DNA from: a virus
DNA: 11,251 bases
Direction: 5' to 3' (one strand)
Virus genome (UHGV): UHGV-1558646
Shown: positions 1,973 through 11,196 of the stretch, one piece after another
Layout of the letters: every line of letters starts with the position of its first letter
Numbering within the stretch: the stretch's first letter is position 1
Translations under genes and position numbers: made by a program
Notes under the pieces: generated by a model
Databases searched by the model: none
What the model was told of the DNA's origin: nothing
What the model saw: the letters and a program-made list of their open reading frames with translations, nothing else

Positions 1973-2269
1973 TCAGTCATTACTGATAGCGCCATAGCGT
2001 GAGCGGTAATTACGCAGGCGCGGGTCGATATATTCAGGGAAGTTGGTATATGTGGCTTTGCGGAATGGTCGGATTGATGTTTCGTTTATTCGGTCTTTTT
2101 CCTGTTTTTCTGCGAGTTGTATATCGCGTCGGTACATCCGTTCTGCTTTTGTTTCTGGTGTCAGAGCAAGAAACGCGTCGAAATTGTTTTTGATATTTTC
2201 CAGCACCTCCGCCTTGGAGCTACCGGAGCAGTTGCGCGGGTCATCCGCACCATACAGAGGCGCTGGCAT
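1973..2269 (-). CDS. Hypothetical phage early protein (98 aa)
   Basis: ORF track 1973..2269. ATG at 2269 with a weak SD (AAGG). Co-oriented, 23 nt downstream of the stop of the preceding gene. Confidence 0.5.
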   Translation of the reverse strand: MPAPLYGADDPRNCSGSSKAEVLENIKNNFDAFLALTPETKAERMYRRDIQLAEKQEKDRINETSIRPFRKATYTNFPEYIDPRLRNYRSRYGAISND

Positions 2270-2292
2270 AATGGGAGCCTTATTTTCAGTAA

Positions 2293-2880
2293 TCAGAAAG
2301 AAGGGTAATCGTTCTGGCTGTAACCATAATCATCTGCATGATTCTGGCTTACGTTTTTAGAGCGATTGTCTTTATCTTTGAGATGGGCAACCATGTTGGT
2401 GATAGTTTCTGGTTGCTTGCCTTCTGCCTTTTCTTTAAGGGTTTGACCTGTTTGTGCAATAAACGGGATGCGTATTTCCATCTGATAGCTGTCTGCACCA
2501 GTCCTTTTGTTTGTGGTTAATACTTTCTGGAGCACTAACCCGATTTTCTTTCCATGAAATTCAGGTGCAACAAATTTACTGGCGGAAACCATATGTTGCG
2601 TTAACTGCTTAATCCCAACACACCCCATCATGGCATGAACGACATTTGCACCAAACTTGTTTTCCGTTCCGTCATTTTTCTGAACACAAACGCTAAGATA
2701 CTGGATTTTACGTCCGTCGTCGGATTCGCCAGAAAACTCAATAAATTTGGCTCCTTTTTCTGATTGCTTTAGTTCTGCTTCAGTAATGGTAATGATATGA
2801 GCGCCAGTTTCGTTAATAAAACCACCTTGCCCTGCGGTCAGTGCTGCTTCTTCGTTATAAGTAAAAATCACGTTGCTCAT
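2293..2880 (-). CDS. Sak4 partner protein, putative ssDNA-binding/accessory protein (195 aa) with acidic-aromatic C-terminal tail ...DDYGYSQNDYPSF
   Basis: ATG at 2880 overlaps the TGA of the upstream Sak4-like gene (ATGA). C-terminal tail is reminiscent of the SSB tip (DDDIPF). Assignment is by position and tail, not by recognised OB-fold motifs. Confidence 0.55.
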   Translation of the reverse strand: MSNVIFTYNEEAALTAGQGGFINETGAHIITITEAELKQSEKGAKFIEFSGESDDGRKIQYLSVCVQKNDGTENKFGANVVHAMMGCVGIKQLTQHMVSASKFVAPEFHGKKIGLVLQKVLTTNKRTGADSYQMEIRIPFIAQTGQTLKEKAEGKQPETITNMVAHLKDKDNRSKNVSQNHADDYGYSQNDYPSF

Positions 2881-3557
2881 GCGGCGTTTTCCTTAATTTG
2901 ATGAACATTATTGATGCCGTAGTAATCACAAACAGTGGCATCGACGAAAGAGAGATCGTTATCAATCTCATTGGAATCAAACATTCCCATTGGGGATTTA
3001 ACAGTGTCTGCACCGTTGTTTTTTGTAGTGAAAAAGAACTGGTCATCACGGGTAAGGGTGCGAAGAACTATAGTAAACATGCCTTCGACAGTGATTTTCT
3101 CGTCCAGCATTTTGCCGATAGTTTTCATTTTCACACGCCCCATAGGGGTTTCTTCGGTGTGTGCAAGAAAATAGACTCTCAGGTCATCAGGTGCATCCTG
3201 TGCAGCCTTAATCACCTCCCATGCGTGGCGGCCTATCTCAGTGAATTTATCAAACGATTTTTCTTCTGAGCGGCGCATAAACTCATTGCTCATCACATAC
3301 TGGAAGTCATCAACAATAACGATTCTTTTCCCGTATTCGTGAGCACGCTTAATTACGGCAACTATTACGTCCCATTTGTCAGTGGTAACTACGGTTCCTT
3401 TTTTTGCTCTGGCATCCCATGCCAGCCATTCTTTTGATTTAAATGGTAGCGGCTTGCCTATTGGTTTTATAAGTATTGCTTCCTCTGGATTGATATTTCT
3501 CATGCTGGTTGATTTTCCGGTGCCAGATTCACCGAGTATTAATGTTGCAGTTCCCAT
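2877..3557 (-). CDS. Sak4-like core-only RecA-fold ATPase (AAA_24 family) recombination protein (226 aa)
   Basis: Walker A GESGTGKST at residues 8-16 and Walker B-like RIVIVDDF. Size and N-terminal P-loop are typical of phage Sak4/AAA_24. SD GAGGTGA before the ATG at 3557. Sits where lambda has the Red genes. Confidence 0.7.
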   Translation of the reverse strand: MGTATLILGESGTGKSTSMRNINPEEAILIKPIGKPLPFKSKEWLAWDARAKKGTVVTTDKWDVIVAVIKRAHEYGKRIVIVDDFQYVMSNEFMRRSEEKSFDKFTEIGRHAWEVIKAAQDAPDDLRVYFLAHTEETPMGRVKMKTIGKMLDEKITVEGMFTIVLRTLTRDDQFFFTTKNNGADTVKSPMGMFDSNEIDNDLSFVDATVCDYYGINNVHQIKENAA

Positions 3558-3565
3558 AATTCACC

Positions 3566-3754
3566 TCAGAATGGTAATTCGGATGAGGAGGAAAGAAACT
3601 CGCGCTCATTCATGCGCTCTCTTTGCGCCTGCCATAAGCAAAGTTGTTTCTTTGATTTATCTCCCGCTTTACGCCAGTAACGAGCCTCAGCAATGTGATA
3701 TTCTCTTTTTAATCGACTTAACTCTGGAGTTTTCGCCAGTTCTACCGGAATCAT
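3566..3754 (-). CDS. Small basic hypothetical protein (62 aa)
   Basis: ATG at 3754 overlaps the kil TGA (ATGA), with SD GGAGG 5 nt upstream. Translation: MIPVELAKTPELSRLKREYHIAEARYWRKAGDKSKKQLCLWQAQRERMNEREFLSSSSELPF. The ORF-track start at 3766 is in frame but lacks an SD. Confidence 0.5.
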   Translation of the reverse strand: MIPVELAKTPELSRLKREYHIAEARYWRKAGDKSKKQLCLWQAQRERMNEREFLSSSSELPF

Positions 3755-3864
3755 TTTGACCTCCATTTCCTGTAGGCTTCGACGGCCTCACGAAACATCT
3801 TTTCATCACCAATAAAAGTGGCGATAGTGAATTTAGTCTGGATAGCCATAAGTGTTTTATCCAT
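3751..3864 (-). CDS. kil: Kil-like host cell-division inhibitor peptide (37 aa)
   Basis: Translation MDKTLMAIQTKFTIATFIGDEKMFREAVEAYRKWRSK closely matches the lambda Kil N-terminus as I recall it (MDQTLMAIQTKFTIATFIGDEKMFREAVDAYKKW...). ATG at 3864 with SD AGGAG. Overlaps the end of cIII as in lambda. Confidence 0.6.
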   Translation of the reverse strand: MDKTLMAIQTKFTIATFIGDEKMFREAVEAYRKWRSK

Positions 3865-3997
3865 TTTTGGGAACTCCTGGCTGATTAAGTATGTCGATAA
3901 GGCGTTTCCATCCGTCACGTAATTTACGGGTGATTCGTTCAAGTAAAGATTCGGAAGGGCAGCCAGCAACAGGCCACCCTGCAATGGCATATTGCAT
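3857..3997 (-). CDS. cIII: cIII (46 aa), anti-FtsH regulator of cII stability
   Basis: Read by hand in a frame absent from the ORF track: MQYAIAGWPVAGCPSESLLERITRKLRDGWKRLIDILNQPGVPKNG. This matches lambda CIII (recalled) over its first 46 residues. SD TAAGGAG 6 nt upstream of the ATG at 3997. Confidence 0.65.
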   Translation of the reverse strand: MQYAIAGWPVAGCPSESLLERITRKLRDGWKRLIDILNQPGVPKNG

Positions 3998-4061
3998 GGT
4001 GTGCTCCTTATTTATTTACACATAACGAAAACGCCTCTAGTGAAGCGTTATTGGTATGCAT

Positions 4062-4087
4062 ATAAAAAAGCCCTCACATTGGAGGGC
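4062..4087 (-). terminator. Intrinsic terminator-like hairpin, leftward transcript (tL-like)
   Basis: Minus strand reads GCCCTC-caatgt-GAGGGC followed by TTTTTTATA. Stem at plus 4070..4075 and 4082..4087; T-run is the complement of 4064..4069. Confidence 0.5.
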
Positions 4088-4149
4088 AAAGAAGATTTCC
4101 AATAATCAGAGCAAGTCGGCTCCTGTTTAGTTACGAGCGACATTGCTCC

Positions 4150-4177
4150 GTGTATTCACTCGTTGGAATGAATACAC
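4150..4177. repeat. 9-bp inverted repeat GTGTATTCA-N10-TGAATACAC
   Basis: Perfect 9-bp arms at 4150..4158 and 4169..4177 in the intergenic region between the 207-aa gene and cIII. Possible protein-binding site or RNA hairpin. Confidence 0.4.
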
Positions 4178-4204
4178 AGTGCAGTGTTTATTCTGTTGTT
4201 TATG

Positions 4205-4231
4205 CCAAAAATAAAGGCCGATTATGCGGCC
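4205..4231 (-). terminator. Intrinsic terminator-like hairpin directly after the 207-aa gene
   Basis: Minus strand reads GGCCGCATAATCGGCC followed by TTTATTTTTGG. Stem overlaps the TAA stop at 4222..4224. Confidence 0.5.
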
Positions 4232-4845
4232 TCGGAAGGAAGTCCAATCATCTTATTCAAATCTTCTACCCGTAAAGCAGGAAGTGCTGTACTTGCTTTA
4301 TCTGCTTCTTTTGGTAGCAATTCTTTGCTTTCAGGCCAAACTTCAATAAGTCGCTTAACTGTTGTGACTGATTTCAAAGCAGCCCATACATTTGATTCGA
4401 TATCCTTTTTCTTGGCTTCAAGTTTTTGTTGCAATGCGCAGATTTCATCAAACCTTTTTGTTATTTCGTGTTCTGCGTCAAACATGCATTTATCTTTGAT
4501 CGGAGTAGGGAGCAATATATCTTTGCCGTTGCCGTCTTCCCCATATGAATGCCATCCAACCCTTCTGCCAGATACAGTCAGATAAATTGAAGTAGAACTA
4601 ACATCGTATGAGTAAAATGAACATCCCATCTTTCCAAGTTCTTCACTTATAGCTACCAACTTGGATGATAACTGATCCACTTCCTCAGTTTTCTTTTTAC
4701 CGCCAAACGCAATAACTCTGGCGTCAAGTGCAAGCTGGTTCTTTAACTTTGTTACTTCTTCAAGTTCAGTGAACACCCCGGACTTAATTAAAGCGTTACG
4801 AGCGATTTCCTCTTTCATTCTCGTAGTTAAGCGGATTGATGACAT
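4222..4845 (-). CDS. Hypothetical protein of unknown function (207 aa), AT-rich
   Basis: ATG at 4845 with SD GAGAGGAA 5 nt upstream. The ORF-track start at 4905 is a TTG overlapping the N stop. Translation starts MSSIRLTTRMKEEIARNALIKSG. No recognisable motif. Composition is visibly more AT-rich than the flanking genes. Confidence 0.6.
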   Translation of the reverse strand: MSSIRLTTRMKEEIARNALIKSGVFTELEEVTKLKNQLALDARVIAFGGKKKTEEVDQLSSKLVAISEELGKMGCSFYSYDVSSTSIYLTVSGRRVGWHSYGEDGNGKDILLPTPIKDKCMFDAEHEITKRFDEICALQQKLEAKKKDIESNVWAALKSVTTVKRLIEVWPESKELLPKEADKASTALPALRVEDLNKMIGLPSEAA

Positions 4846-4906: not shown

Positions 4907-5290
4907 TCACCTCGCCGTCAGTTGTTTGTATTTCCGGTAGCCTGCCGCGTAAATGGCTACGTTTGGAAGACATACACCAGTTTCTGGTTGCTTATGTCCA
5001 AACTCATTCGCGTACACAATGGCTGCTCGCTCCAGATTGCGTCTGTATTCTTTCTGTTGCCAGATCACGTCCTGTGCCATGAACTTAATTGGCTTAGCGT
5101 CTTCTATGCGCTCAGGCGTTTCGTGAGTACCTTTAGCCTGAATCTGCGCTCTGCTTAGAGTAGGGCGGTGTAATACTTCTGAACTTATTGCTTCTTCGCG
5201 GGCCAGCACGCCGTTAGCTAATGCCTTTGCCTTTAAACGCTCACGACGACGAGAACGTGAATTGCCTTTGAACTGAGTTCTGCGTGTCAT
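4907..5290 (-). CDS. N: N-type transcription antitermination protein, P22 gene 24-like (127 aa)
   Basis: N-terminal arginine-rich motif GNSRSRRRERLKAKALA and C-terminus LPNVAIYAAGYRKYKQLTAR resemble P22 N as I recall it. ATG at 5290 with SD AGGAGG at 6-nt spacing; the ORF-track start at 5356 lacks an SD. nutL boxB lies upstream. Confidence 0.7.
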   Translation of the reverse strand: MTRRTQFKGNSRSRRRERLKAKALANGVLAREEAISSEVLHRPTLSRAQIQAKGTHETPERIEDAKPIKFMAQDVIWQQKEYRRNLERAAIVYANEFGHKQPETGVCLPNVAIYAAGYRKYKQLTAR

Positions 5291-5756: not shown

Positions 5757-6782
5757 TTACGGGCGAGTGATGGTTGATGCGTTTCCGTTTTCTATTACAC
5801 CTGCTCGTATCGTGTAGCTTCCCAAGATTTTTACTGTCCTGTTTTCTTTCATTGCATCAAACAGTATGGCGATCTCGTCTTTATCATCTATGAACGACGT
5901 GTCCACCGAAACAGGGAAACTGTCTTCACTAGATGGTTCGCGGCAGCTTAGGGTTATCTTTTCCGCAGTACGCTTGATTCCATCAATGACTAATTCAAGG
6001 TTTCTTTCTTCTTTTTTTGCTTTTTCGATAGGGTTCTTGATTAGTTCGTGGATTTCTTTGTTAGACAGTTCAACTGTGCTTGCGCCTGATATGACAATTT
6101 TGTCAGCATCAGACGCGCCTTTTAATACCCCTGTATACGCTTTTGCAGTATGCTCTTGAATCCCTTCGGCGCGCTCTACTGCATCTATGCCCGCTTTAGC
6201 TCTAATCGCCTCAAGCATTCCGTCCCTTAATATCGTCATGCGCTCGTTTTCTGATTTAATCTTGGCTTCTTCGAGCTTTGTTTCTTCTTGCTTGACTTCT
6301 ACTTCGGCTTTTTTCTCTAAGTATGATGTACCAACCCATGCACCGCCTATAACGGTGACAGCAAACAAGAAGCATAATGTTTTTTGGCTAGGACTCATAC
6401 CGTGTGTTACCTTCTCAAAGGCTTTACCGAATGCTTCAAAAAGCTCTGTTAATGCAGCAAGTATATCAGTACAACCTTCATTAATGGTAAAGATGATCTC
6501 TGCTTCCTCTTTATCTTTACCAGTTAACCTTTGAAGGTTGTCAGTTTTATATTTTATTAGTGTGAAAACTTTATAAATTTCAGTCTGAAATTCGCATAAA
6601 CCCTGAGCTAGAGGAGATGGAAGCGTTCCGTTGTAGCGAGAAGGATCACCATAAATCTTAAAATTCACATTATTGAAGAGGTCTAACTTGATCCTGTCGA
6701 TAGTGATCTCTTCGCCACCATCTAACCTTGCAAACAAAGATTCAATGTCGTCCAGACTTGAAACATTAATAATATCTTTCAT
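5757..6782 (-). CDS. Unknown membrane-anchored coiled-coil protein (341 aa) in the rexAB-equivalent slot; candidate exclusion/abortive-infection gene
   Basis: ORF track 5757..6782. ATG at 6782 with SD GAAGGTG. One predicted TM helix (TLCFLFAVTVIGGAWVGTSYL, about residues 136-156) followed by a K/E-rich coiled-coil. AT-rich relative to the repressor and replication genes. 80 bp downstream of the repressor stop on the same strand. Confidence 0.7.
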   Translation of the reverse strand: MKDIINVSSLDDIESLFARLDGGEEITIDRIKLDLFNNVNFKIYGDPSRYNGTLPSPLAQGLCEFQTEIYKVFTLIKYKTDNLQRLTGKDKEEAEIIFTINEGCTDILAALTELFEAFGKAFEKVTHGMSPSQKTLCFLFAVTVIGGAWVGTSYLEKKAEVEVKQEETKLEEAKIKSENERMTILRDGMLEAIRAKAGIDAVERAEGIQEHTAKAYTGVLKGASDADKIVISGASTVELSNKEIHELIKNPIEKAKKEERNLELVIDGIKRTAEKITLSCREPSSEDSFPVSVDTSFIDDKDEIAILFDAMKENRTVKILGSYTIRAGVIENGNASTITRP

Positions 6783-8333: not shown

Positions 8334-8477
8334 ATGCGAAAAACGCAGGAAAATAAACGCGTTAATCACCGAAAAGATGTGCTACGTGACCAGTTTTATC
8401 AGGGAGTTAATCCAGCAATAGCTGTGCCACTGAGAGAAATACTTAACAGGTACAAAACTTCGGAGAAGTCAAAATGA
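8334..8477 (+). CDS. Small basic hypothetical protein (47 aa)
   Basis: ATG at 8334 with SD GAGG at 7-nt spacing. TGA overlaps the ATG of the replication initiator (ATGA). The ORF-track version (8169..8477) overlaps cII in another frame, so the internal start is preferred. Confidence 0.4.
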   Translation: MRKTQENKRVNHRKDVLRDQFYQGVNPAIAVPLREILNRYKTSEKSK

Positions 8478-9205
8478 GCATGAATCTTATGGCTAAGGCC
8501 ATGAATATAAAGGTTGGCAACCCACTGAGAAAACTGGTTCTGATTAAACTTGCCGATAACGCCAATGATAATGGCGAATGCTGGCCTTCATATCAACATG
8601 TCGCTGACCAGTGTGAGGTGAGCAGATCGACAGTAAAAAGTCACATTAGGGCACTGGAAGAGATGGGTCTTTTGAAAAGGGAATGCAGAAGAAAAGGAGA
8701 GCTTAACCAGTCAAACGTTTTTTATCTGACGCTGGATAATGCACAACAAATCCCACCAGAATCAGGTGGGGCAGGAGCTGCCCCCAGAACCTATCACTCT
8801 TTTGAACCAGTCAATGAACCTAAAAACATTATGTTCGAACATGTCCGAACGGAGTGGGAAAAAACTCCTGACCGTCACGAAGAAACCGACAAGGCATTCG
8901 AGGAAATATTCTGGTGTGCAGGCATGCGGAAAGCCGGGAAGAAAAACGCAGCTTCAGCATTCAGAACACAGTTCAGGGAATGGCGTAAAACTACCAGGGG
9001 TACGGCAAGCGAGTTTGCCACGATGCTGGCAGAAGACATCGCATGCAGGAATGGTAAGCAGTTCGGATTCGACAGGTTGTTACCATCGAGCTACCTGAAC
9101 GGTCAACGCTGGAACGACGAGAAGCCAGAAACTATTCAACCACAATCCAAACCATCATCCGCAATCACCGTATCGAAAACTGGCTACGTGTTTTTCGACA
9201 GGTGA
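8474..9205 (+). CDS. Replication initiator / replisome organiser, O-like, with N-terminal HTH (243 aa)
   Basis: N-terminal LVLIKLADNANDNGECWPSYQHVADQCEVSRSTVKSHIRALEEMGLL resembles the HTH domain of phage replication initiators. Low-complexity linker PPESGGAGAAP. Located in the lambda O position. Confidence 0.7.
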   Translation: MSMNLMAKAMNIKVGNPLRKLVLIKLADNANDNGECWPSYQHVADQCEVSRSTVKSHIRALEEMGLLKRECRRKGELNQSNVFYLTLDNAQQIPPESGGAGAAPRTYHSFEPVNEPKNIMFEHVRTEWEKTPDRHEETDKAFEEIFWCAGMRKAGKKNAASAFRTQFREWRKTTRGTASEFATMLAEDIACRNGKQFGFDRLLPSSYLNGQRWNDEKPETIQPQSKPSSAITVSKTGYVFFDR

Positions 9206-9208
9206 ACC

Positions 9209-9316
9209 ATGAAATCCAGAATCAAATCGTTACTTATCGCTGGCTATAACCATGGCTGGCTTAGTTCTGCATTCGTTGAGTTCTGGTTTAACCGTCTCGA
9301 TCTGAGGTCAGCGTAA
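9209..9316 (+). CDS. Possible small ORF (35 aa) between the initiator and the primase
   Basis: ATG at 9209 follows AGGTGA. Translation MKSRIKSLLIAGYNHGWLSSAFVEFWFNRLDLRSA. Its TAA overlaps the primase ATG (TAATG). Below the ORF-track size cutoff. Confidence 0.3.
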   Translation: MKSRIKSLLIAGYNHGWLSSAFVEFWFNRLDLRSA

Positions 9317-11196
9317 TGACTCCAAGTGAACTGAGCGACCTGCTTTGGGCGCAGGTTGACAGGGTGGCTCCGCACCTGTTGCCAAACGGCAAGAAAGAGG
9401 GGCATGAGTGGGTTGCCGGTAACGTTAACGGTGACAAGGGAAACAGCCTTAAGGTCAACCTTAGCGGCAAGAAAAAATGGGCTGATTTCGCTGAGGGAGA
9501 CGGCGGTGACATGCTTGATTTGTGGATGGCATGTCGTGGAATTAACCTGCATCAGGCTATGCAGGAAGCGAAAGCATTTCTCGGTATCAAGGATGACGAT
9601 CACCATTTCGATGCCAGACGTGAGAAGAAATTCTCCAGACCTGATCGCAAGAAAATCGCCAGTTACGTTACCAGAACAGAATCCCATCTTGAGTACCTGC
9701 AATCGCGTGGCATATCGCCAGAAGTCGTAAAGCGCTACGAGGTTGTCAGCGGCAAGGTGTGGAATGGAGAGCGGGAACTGGATGCTCTGGTGCTTCCGTA
9801 CAAACGCGATGGTGAGTTGTTGCAGGTCAAGCGAATCAGCACTGAGCGCCCGGACGGGAAGAAAGTCATTATGGCAGAAGGTGATTGCGAACCTTGTCTG
9901 TTCGGATGGCAGGCTCTGGACGCTGGCGTGAGGGCGGTTGTACTTTGCGAAGGCGAAATTGATTGTATGAGCTATGCGCAATACGGCATCTCGGCGTTAT
10001 CCGTGCCGTTTGGTGGCGGGAAAGGCGCTAAGCAGCAGTGGATTGAGTTTGAGTATCACAACCTCGACAGGTTTGAGGAAATATTCATCTCGATGGATGT
10101 TGATGATGTTGGTCGTGAAGCCGCAAGGGAAATCGCAAGCCGACTCGGTGAACATCGTTGCCGTCTTGTTACTCTGCCGTACAAAGACATCAACGAATGC
10201 CTGATGAACGGTGTTACCGAGGATGAAATCTGGCAGTACATCGGCACGGCATCCTACTTCGATCCTGAAGAACTCTACAGCGCGCGAGAGTTTTACCAGG
10301 ACACTATCAACGCTTTCTACGGCAAGCAGCAGTATCTGTTTAATCCACCGTGGGAATCTCTGGCAGATAAATTCCAGTTCCGTGAGGCCGAGTTGACGCT
10401 GGTCAATGGTGTGAACGGTCACGGAAAAACGGAGGTTGTCGGGCATATGGCACTTGAGGCAATGCGTCAGGGTGTGAAGACGTGCATCGCGTCACTTGAG
10501 CTGAAGCCTGGTATTCTCCTTAAGCGCCTTACCCGTCAGGCGACGTGCTGCAAGATGCCGCCAGTGCTGGAAATTGACTCTGCATTTAAATTTTATGACG
10601 AAAGACTTTGGGTGTTTGGCCTGACCGGAACGGCGAAAGCCGACAGGCTGATCGAAATATTCGACTACGCTCGCCGCCGATACGGTATCCAGTTATTCAT
10701 CATCGACAGCCTGATGAAATGTGGCATAGGCGACGATGACTATAACGGGCAGAAGGCGTTTGTTGACTCGATTTGCGACTTCAAAAACAAAACAAACTCC
10801 CACGTCATTCTCGTTACTCACTCGCGAAAAGGAGACAGCGAAGAAAAACCAACCGGGAAAATGGACGTAAAAGGCTCTGGAGCGATAACAGACCTGACAG
10901 ACAACCTTTTTATCATCTGGCGTAACAAGGCTCGCGAGAGAGCGTTACAGAGAGTTCAAAGCGGTGAACAGATGTCAGAGAAGGACGAACAGCTACTGGT
11001 GTCTCCGGCATCTGTTTTGTTGCTTGAAAAACAACGTAACGGTGAAGGTTGGGAAGGTGGTATCCCGTTGTTCCTTGACGAGCAATCGCACCAGTTCCTG
11101 CAACTTGAATCAGGATCTCCATATAGCTACATCGCCAATATGCCGAAATCGGAATATGACGAGGCGTGGAGACAGGAAAACGTGACGGAGTATTAA
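9316..11196 (+). CDS. Bifunctional DNA primase (TOPRIM) / RecA-fold DnaB-like replicative helicase (626 aa)
   Basis: TOPRIM motifs VVLCEGEIDCMSYAQ (catalytic Glu) and ISMDVDDVGREA (DxD). Helicase Walker A NGVNGHGKTEV and Walker B LFIIDSLMK. SD GAGGT before the ATG at 9316. Confidence 0.85.
   Translation: MTPSELSDLLWAQVDRVAPHLLPNGKKEGHEWVAGNVNGDKGNSLKVNLSGKKKWADFAEGDGGDMLDLWMACRGINLHQAMQEAKAFLGIKDDDHHFDARREKKFSRPDRKKIASYVTRTESHLEYLQSRGISPEVVKRYEVVSGKVWNGERELDALVLPYKRDGELLQVKRISTERPDGKKVIMAEGDCEPCLFGWQALDAGVRAVVLCEGEIDCMSYAQYGISALSVPFGGGKGAKQQWIEFEYHNLDRFEEIFISMDVDDVGREAAREIASRLGEHRCRLVTLPYKDINECLMNGVTEDEIWQYIGTASYFDPEELYSAREFYQDTINAFYGKQQYLFNPPWESLADKFQFREAELTLVNGVNGHGKTEVVGHMALEAMRQGVKTCIASLELKPGILLKRLTRQATCCKMPPVLEIDSAFKFYDERLWVFGLTGTAKADRLIEIFDYARRRYGIQLFIIDSLMKCGIGDDDYNGQKAFVDSICDFKNKTNSHVILVTHSRKGDSEEKPTGKMDVKGSGAITDLTDNLFIIWRNKARERALQRVQSGEQMSEKDEQLLVSPASVLLLEKQRNGEGWEGGIPLFLDEQSHQFLQLESGSPYSYIANMPKSEYDEAWRQENVTEY

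Follow-up and report, generated by a model that had tools for sequence, protein, structure and literature searches.

A sak4-ssb gene pair of the HK620 recombination module type in a lambdoid prophage, and a natural variant of its SSB tail

Background

Which recombination functions does a lambdoid prophage encode at the place where lambda carries exo, bet and gam, and what is the role of a small protein of unusual sequence whose gene overlaps that of a putative recombination ATPase? These questions are raised by a locus in the virus genome UHGV-1558646, of which a stretch of 11,251 nucleotides (the window) was analysed. A preliminary description of this DNA had proposed a Sak4-type recombination module in place of lambda Red, consisting of a Walker A/B ATPase of 226 amino acids (aa) translationally coupled to a non-canonical partner protein of 195 aa. 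The gene pair is real, was correctly read in that description, and is already known, as it corresponds to a characterised system that here occurs in a different phage backbone. The locus almost certainly represents the homologous-recombination (Rec) module hkaM-sak4-ssb-abc2 of the HK620 type in a lambdoid prophage. [quoted passage not shown] Indeed, Hutinet et al. [quoted passage not shown]

Results and discussion

Organisation of the gene pair and the module

Both open reading frames (ORFs) of the pair were retrieved on the minus strand, at 2877..3557 and 2293..2880, and the overlap ascribed to them was found as well, as positions 2877-2880 read TCAT on the plus strand and hence ATGA in the direction of the genes. 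The features of the module are as follows, the Shine-Dalgarno and Walker motifs having been read directly from the sequence:

3566..3754, minus strand: hkaM, first module gene, an orphan ORF of 62 aa (phrog_1723, 9.6e-33); the mechanical ORF reaches 3766 from an upstream ATG
3562..3567, minus strand: GAGGTG, Shine-Dalgarno sequence for sak4, overlapping the TGA stop codon of hkaM (3568..3566)
2877..3557, minus strand: sak4 (hkaL), encoding an ATP-dependent ssDNA annealase of 226 aa, described as RecA-core-only (identity with HK620 HkaL, phrog_2872, AAA_24, and the biochemistry in PMC5928155)
3510..3533, minus strand: Walker A codons, GESGTGKS, Sak4 residues 9-16
3306..3323, minus strand: Walker B codons, IVIVDD, Sak4 residues 79-84, in register with the RecA Walker B motif in a weak hhalign match
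2894..2890, minus strand: AAGGA, Shine-Dalgarno sequence upstream of the ssb ATG
2877..2880, minus strand: ATGA overlap of the sak4 stop codon (TGA) and the ssb start codon (ATG), with its HK620 equivalent at 5065-5068
2293..2880, minus strand: ssb (hkaK, 'SSB-2'), encoding a divergent OB-fold SSB of 195 aa of the DUF669/N4 gp45 lineage
2458..2805, minus strand: predicted OB-fold core, residues 26-141 (b1 26-39, b2 45-53, b3 57-67, helix 75-88, b4 112-123, b5 130-141)
2296..2313, minus strand: NDYPSF codons, C-terminal hexapeptide of ssb and presumed Sak4-recruiting tail (HK620 counterpart, NDYPPF)
1973..2269, minus strand: abc2, last module gene, encoding an anti-RecBCD protein of 98 aa (Pfam Anti-RecBCD_p2, 1.1e-39; phrog_656, 1.8e-48)

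The ATGA overlap probably couples the translation of both genes, so that the two partners would be produced together. Two antisense ORFs on the plus strand (2898..3269 and 3376..3759) were rejected as real genes, because both the homology and the synonymous-only divergence belong to the minus-strand frames.

A megablast search with positions 2200-3800 matched 141 phage records, and over this region the HK620 DNA was 96.8% identical, with the order hkaM, hkaL, hkaK, hkaJ kept. The hkaM gene shared 96% DNA identity with its HK620 counterpart (four synonymous and two nonsynonymous codon differences), and gene callers give its product a length of 62 aa in six records (L002-L007). Hutinet et al. 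(2018) describe HkaM as an orphan with no known function (PMC5928155). The phrog_1723 label for this protein is 'recombinase', with neither Pfam nor NCBIfam giving a match, and this label seems to be inherited from an old positional analogy to P22 arf. At the other end of the module, the Abc2 protein was only 68% identical to HK620 Abc2, against 96% for the adjacent ssb product. Among the IMG/VR loci, the identity to the Abc2 of the window was either about 67-74% or about 86-100%; this split points to a putative recombination breakpoint in the 23-nt spacer between ssb and abc2.

Genomic context

From right to left, the genes of the region are cI, an ORF of 341 aa, N, an Nmad5 protein gene, cIII, kil, hkaM, sak4, ssb, abc2, small ORFs, and ead/Ea22. 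That the module stands in place of lambda Red, as had been claimed, was borne out by phage phi24B, which is 94-98% identical on both sides and carries gam-bet-exo in between. Besides the immunity and replication region, these shared flanks comprise Ead (1165-1512) and kil/cIII (3762-4182), indicating that one module has been exchanged for the other, with the breakpoint where kil and hkaM meet. Neither a promoter-like site nor a convincing terminator was found on the coding strand inside the module, which is consistent with a single early-left transcript. The replication region (8474-11196) has its own initiator and primase-helicase and lies apart from the Sak4 module. Over its full length, the window was 99.96% identical to a prophage in GCA_026065395.1. 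The host genes just past the integrase of that prophage encode Pfam domains of the RcsB-like and RcsC-like kinds. In the phage and complete E. coli genome collections, no record covered at least 80% of the window.

Several neighbouring genes of the window deserve mention in their own right. The primase-helicase gene (9316..11196, plus strand; 626 aa, Toprim_2 and AAA_25/DnaB_C) is an intein-less allele, and the phi24B P protein (968 aa; L008 10547..13453) is about 98% identical to it on both sides of an insertion of about 1,025 nt in the helicase part, which carries Hint and LAGLIDADG domains. The 341-aa ORF between cI and N (5757..6782, minus strand) occupies the slot of lambda rexAB and of phi24B stk and other genes; it had no match in Pfam or PADLOC and matched only phrog_6191 (unknown function, 1e-98), and it is a candidate for an exclusion or defence gene expressed in the lysogen. 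Between N and cIII, a protein with nucleotide-modification-associated domain 5 is encoded (Nmad5; 4222..4845, minus strand; Pfam 1e-70), at about the position of two phi24B genes, one annotated as a putative ssb and the other hypothetical. The lambda cIII thermoregulator element (Rfam; 3952..4010, minus strand) scored 88.5 bits (gathering score, 50) and is located at the 5' end of cIII, a gene of 46 aa (3857..3997). The kil gene encodes 37 aa (3751..3864), the mechanical 'kil' ORF of 79 aa (3751..3990) being over-extended.

Identity of the ATPase

The 226-aa protein was identical to HK620 HkaL (Sak4) over all 226 of 226 residues (100%), and the six nucleotide differences between the two sak4 genes were all synonymous, indicating purifying selection. 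Furthermore, it matched phrog_2872, 'Sak4-like ssDNA annealing protein' (3e-108, over 1-220 of 219 profile positions). The Pfam matches were generic, namely AAA_24 (5.8e-7, 30 bits, slightly above the 27-bit cut-off) and AAA_22 (27 bits). The assignment of the ATPase to the Sak4/AAA_24 type thus holds, and the HMM search returned this family and no match to terminase or replication-ATPase families. Both ATPase motifs that had been reported were found in the protein, GESGTGKS at residues 9-16 and IVIVDD at residues 79-84; among 83 diverse homologues, G14, K15, and D84 were invariant and D83 was at least 90% conserved. With 226 aa, the protein belongs to the Sak4 length class of about 220 aa, with no further domain at either end. 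An ssb gene adjoins about 80% of sak4 genes (PMC5928155), and in the window an ssb gene follows immediately downstream. A PADLOC match of Sak4 to mad8 (2e-5, over 23 residues) was set aside, as it reflects Walker A similarity at the P-loop level only.

The RecA/Rad51-like core fold of Sak4 rests on the literature (PMC5928155, PMC11846896) and was not reproduced by the present searches. A search of PDB sequences with Sak4 alone gave no match, and PDB profile searches with 2, 32, and 83 sequences gave P-loop matches only. Aligned by hhalign with E. coli RecA, the 83-sequence profile placed Sak4 residues 1-89 on RecA residues 58-151, with Walker A to Walker B collinear, at a probability of 12%. 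The single-sequence AlphaFold (AF2) model of Sak4 had a pLDDT of 44.8, too low for a fold search. A staphylococcal Sak4 has been seen as a Rad51-like filament by cryo-EM (PMC11846896).

Identity and fold of the partner protein

The 195-aa protein was identical to HK620 HkaK (SSB_HK620) at 188 of 195 positions (96%), the seven substitutions including P194S; at the codon level, the two ssb genes differed by 11 synonymous and seven nonsynonymous changes. It matched phrog_743, 'single strand DNA binding protein' (7e-66), and NCBI names its close relatives 'DUF669 domain-containing'. The PHROG matches of the two genes are thus much better than chance would give. Obvious canonical SSB motifs had been reported as lacking, and indeed the Pfam SSB model (PF00436) did not match the partner at E<=10. 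The Pfam DUF669 model (PF05037) likewise gave no match even at E<=10, and weak sub-threshold matches to it were found in only nine of 39 relatives (best E, 0.0052), so that the link of the partner to DUF669 appears to be one of remote homology and predicted fold only. No NCBIfam model matched the protein, a profile search of the PDB with its family gave no sequence match, and no match was found in a PADLOC defence-system search.

The AlphaFold model of the partner, built from an alignment of 39 homologues, had a mean pLDDT of 83 and a pTM of 0.72. In this model, the order of strands and helix is that of the OB topology, and the protein is predicted to have one OB domain, followed by a disordered tail. 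Residues 177-195 were disordered (pLDDT <50), with a value of about 30 for the C-terminal hexapeptide. The model resembled PrgE, RPA, bacterial SSBs, DUF669 proteins, and N4-like phage SSBs, the last two groups being retrieved by Foldseek from viral models, with E values as low as 9e-15. This agrees with the remote homology to N4 gp45 that was reported in 2018. Structure prediction had been suggested as a test of whether the partner has an OB fold, and such a ssDNA-binding fold was found. The acidic-aromatic tail that had been noticed is present too, as the protein ends in DDYGYSQNDYPSF. Hence, the partner works like an SSB, outside the canonical bacterial SSB sequence family PF00436. The preliminary description called it non-canonical, which is right for it as an SSB; of Sak4 it is the standard partner. 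In addition, Sak4 activity had been said to depend on a cognate SSB; the partner is that cognate SSB, a point that had been missed.

Published activities and proposed functioning of the module

Alone, the HK620 Sak4 displays low affinity and activity in vitro; it shifts ssDNA only in the presence of ATP and does not bind dsDNA (PMC5928155). HkaK elutes as a tetramer and binds ssDNA, forming two complexes in gel shifts as E. coli SSB does, with an affinity about 4-fold lower (PMC5928155). It blocks both RecA-mediated and spontaneous annealing; by itself it does not anneal strands, whether ATP is present or not, and it stimulates strand exchange by RecA (PMC5928155). Sak4, in the presence of ATP, efficiently anneals ssDNA coated with SSB_HK620; binding of Sak4 to SSB-coated ssDNA requires the six-residue tail of HkaK, and HkaK without its last six residues (NDYPPF) acts as an inhibitor (PMC5928155). 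Strand exchange is neither performed nor assisted by Sak4 (PMC5928155). In recombineering assays, sak4 alone gave a 15-fold increase over background and the whole module a 210-fold increase, a level that was fully restored by sak4 plus ssb; deletion of the six tail residues of HkaK caused a 10-fold loss, and abc2 had no added effect (PMC5928155). This evidence on the HK620 module stems from plasmid-based recombineering, conjugation assays, and in vitro work (PMC5928155).

In the window, the module would be read leftward within the N-antiterminated early-left operon, in the slot of gam-bet-exo in lambda and phi24B and of arf-erf-abc1-abc2 in P22. By analogy with P22 Abc2, the Abc2 protein may turn the host RecBCD into a resection enzyme. 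The tetrameric, divergent OB-fold SSB of 195 aa would then coat the ssDNA, as the HK620 protein, 96% identical, has been shown to do, and the ssDNA-bound SSB would expose its disordered acidic-aromatic C-terminus to recruit Sak4, as was shown for NDYPPF and is presumed for NDYPSF. Sak4, a P-loop ATPase that is described as RecA-core-only and is bound to ssDNA only with ATP, would anneal the complementary SSB-coated strands without strand exchange, as was shown for the identical protein. The outcome may be single-strand-annealing recombination, for phage recombination, recombination-dependent replication, and mosaic exchange.

Other readings of the two proteins have to be weighed against this one. 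The partner might be an annealing or mediator protein, resembling RecO or UvsY, instead of an SSB, which would account for the stimulation of Sak4 annealing by SSB_HK620 and for the missing Pfam SSB match. Yet this is very improbable and has largely been refuted by the published assays, in which SSB_HK620 alone yielded no annealed product and inhibited spontaneous annealing, shifted ssDNA like E. coli SSB, and stimulated RecA strand exchange (PMC5928155); the fold predicted for the 195-aa protein, a single OB domain plus a disordered tail, is that of SSBs as well. Of the proposal that the partner is a divergent ssDNA-binding or annealing cofactor, the ssDNA-binding half therefore stands, through the 96% identity to SSB_HK620 and the OB-fold model, and the annealase sense is not supported, since SSB_HK620 alone does not anneal. 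It is equally far-fetched that the main task of the ATPase lies in replication or elsewhere, for example as a loader or a helicase-like P-loop protein, with annealing being incidental. Such a role could be suspected from the generic nature of its Pfam matches, from the link of Sak4 to RecA that was not reproduced in the profile searches and with hhalign, and from the low affinity and activity of Sak4 alone (PMC5928155). The sak4 gene, however, lies in the Rec-module slot beside abc2 and outside the replication region; ATP-dependent annealing and recombineering have been shown for the identical protein (PMC5928155), and the Rad51-like filaments of the staphylococcal Sak4 (PMC11846896) speak against it too.

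Distribution and annotation

The module was found in 195 of 5,426 complete E. coli genomes, being chromosomal in every case. The 3' end of ssb was common to 67 IMG/VR contigs; among the contigs long enough for the whole module, all four module genes were full-length in 53, and three more differed only by a partly matched hkaM. Some IMG/VR relatives (L040, 2486..4326; also L044 and L051) had an hkaM of 97-98% and an ssb of 96-97% identity, but a Sak4 of 218 aa that was only 51% identical, so that the same SSB is paired with two very different Sak4 lineages. In these relatives, an additional Cys-rich ORF of 206 aa without a Pfam match lies between sak4 and ssb, and the ATGA coupling is broken. 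In one chromosome with exactly the same SSB allele as the window (L006, 7365..10004), an insertion with transposase genes of the IS21 type (domains rve integrase and IstB_IS21) interrupts sak4, of which two pieces, of 71 aa and 185 aa, were called.

In RefSeq E. coli records, sak4 is labelled 'ATP-binding protein', whereas the label for ssb is either 'DUF669 domain-containing protein' or 'hypothetical protein'. The functional assignment of 2018 is thus absent from these annotations, and the value of the present case lies in annotation.

The C-terminal tail variant

The penultimate residue of the SSB tail is Ser in the window and Pro in HK620 (P194S). The same penultimate Pro-to-Ser change is known from E. 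coli ssb-113 (P176S), which weakens the binding of partners, chi among them, and is temperature-sensitive (PMC3045619). The PSF tail is a minority form, present in two of the 67 IMG/VR copies, and it recurs in many assemblies; in those two copies, S194 is part of a linked haplotype (V88, K91, R126, T161, H166, S194), and the Sak4 is identical to that of the window. The exact 195-aa sequence was indexed in 480 blocks of public assemblies, and in five of the six places shown, the exact SSB allele adjoins an intact gene for the 226-aa Sak4, the sixth being the locus with the IS21 in sak4. Among 39 family members, the terminal Phe was at least 90% conserved and the penultimate position varied (P, S, Q, D, E, A, M).

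It could be argued that P194S weakens or retargets the tail, with less stimulation of Sak4 or an altered contact with host SSB-interacting proteins, making this copy unlike the HK620 pair. The six-residue tail is essential for stimulation in the HK620 SSB (PMC5928155), the same change in ssb-113 is harmful in the ways mentioned (PMC3045619), and the PSF tail is rare among the IMG/VR copies. Nevertheless, such an effect is unlikely in view of the natural variability at the penultimate position beside a conserved terminal Phe, the many index blocks with the exact allele and the intact Sak4 gene that mostly accompanies it, and the occurrence of P194S within a linked haplotype rather than as a lone lesion. 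A more speculative idea, to which little probability is given as well, sees NDYPSF as a natural counterpart of ssb-113 that tunes or retargets the tail, either by a weaker capture of host SSB-binding proteins with Sak4 kept, or by an altered stimulation of Sak4; together with the pairing with a 51%-identical Sak4, the interface of SSB and Sak4 would then be a loose, exchangeable tail docking. This natural tail variant would allow the requirements of the Sak4-docking motif to be tested cheaply and specifically.

Comparison with known systems

The closest known system is the HkaL-HkaK pair of HK620, with the same order hkaM-sak4-ssb-abc2, the same ATGA overlap, a Sak4 of 100% identity, and an SSB of 96% identity. 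The window differs from it by seven SSB substitutions, of which P194S lies in the essential tail, by an Abc2 of 68% identity, and by its phage backbone, which has an immunity and replication region like that of Stx phages. Lambda Red (gam-bet-exo) and the arf-erf-abc1-abc2 genes of P22 occupy the same early-left slot and have the same task, namely single-strand annealing and RecBCD control. However, lambda Beta and P22 Erf are ATP-independent, Rad52-like rings, whereas Sak4 is an ATP-dependent annealase, described as a RecA-core protein, that needs its own SSB. Moreover, the Sak4 module has no exonuclease and uses Abc2 where lambda Red uses Gam.

As to the partner, the DUF669 phage SSBs (Lc-Nu, PhiAT3) and N4 gp45 are remote relatives, the window protein being below the reach of Pfam DUF669, which only nine of its 39 relatives matched weakly (best E, 0.005). 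Monomers of PrgE, from plasmid pCF10 (PDB 8s4s), bind along DNA like beads on a string, and dsDNA is bound by PrgE too, whereas SSB_HK620 is a tetramer. E. coli SSB and SSB_HK620 both have the OB fold, form tetramers, and give two-step gel shifts, and both carry a partner-recruiting acidic tail that ends in Pro-Phe (DDDIPF and NDYPPF, respectively). Finally, Sak4 resembles the T4 UvsX/UvsY/gp32, Rad52-RPA, and RecO-SSB systems in that the C-terminus of an SSB brings a recombinase or annealing protein to the coated ssDNA; it differs from these systems in that it does not perform strand exchange and does not help RecA in it.
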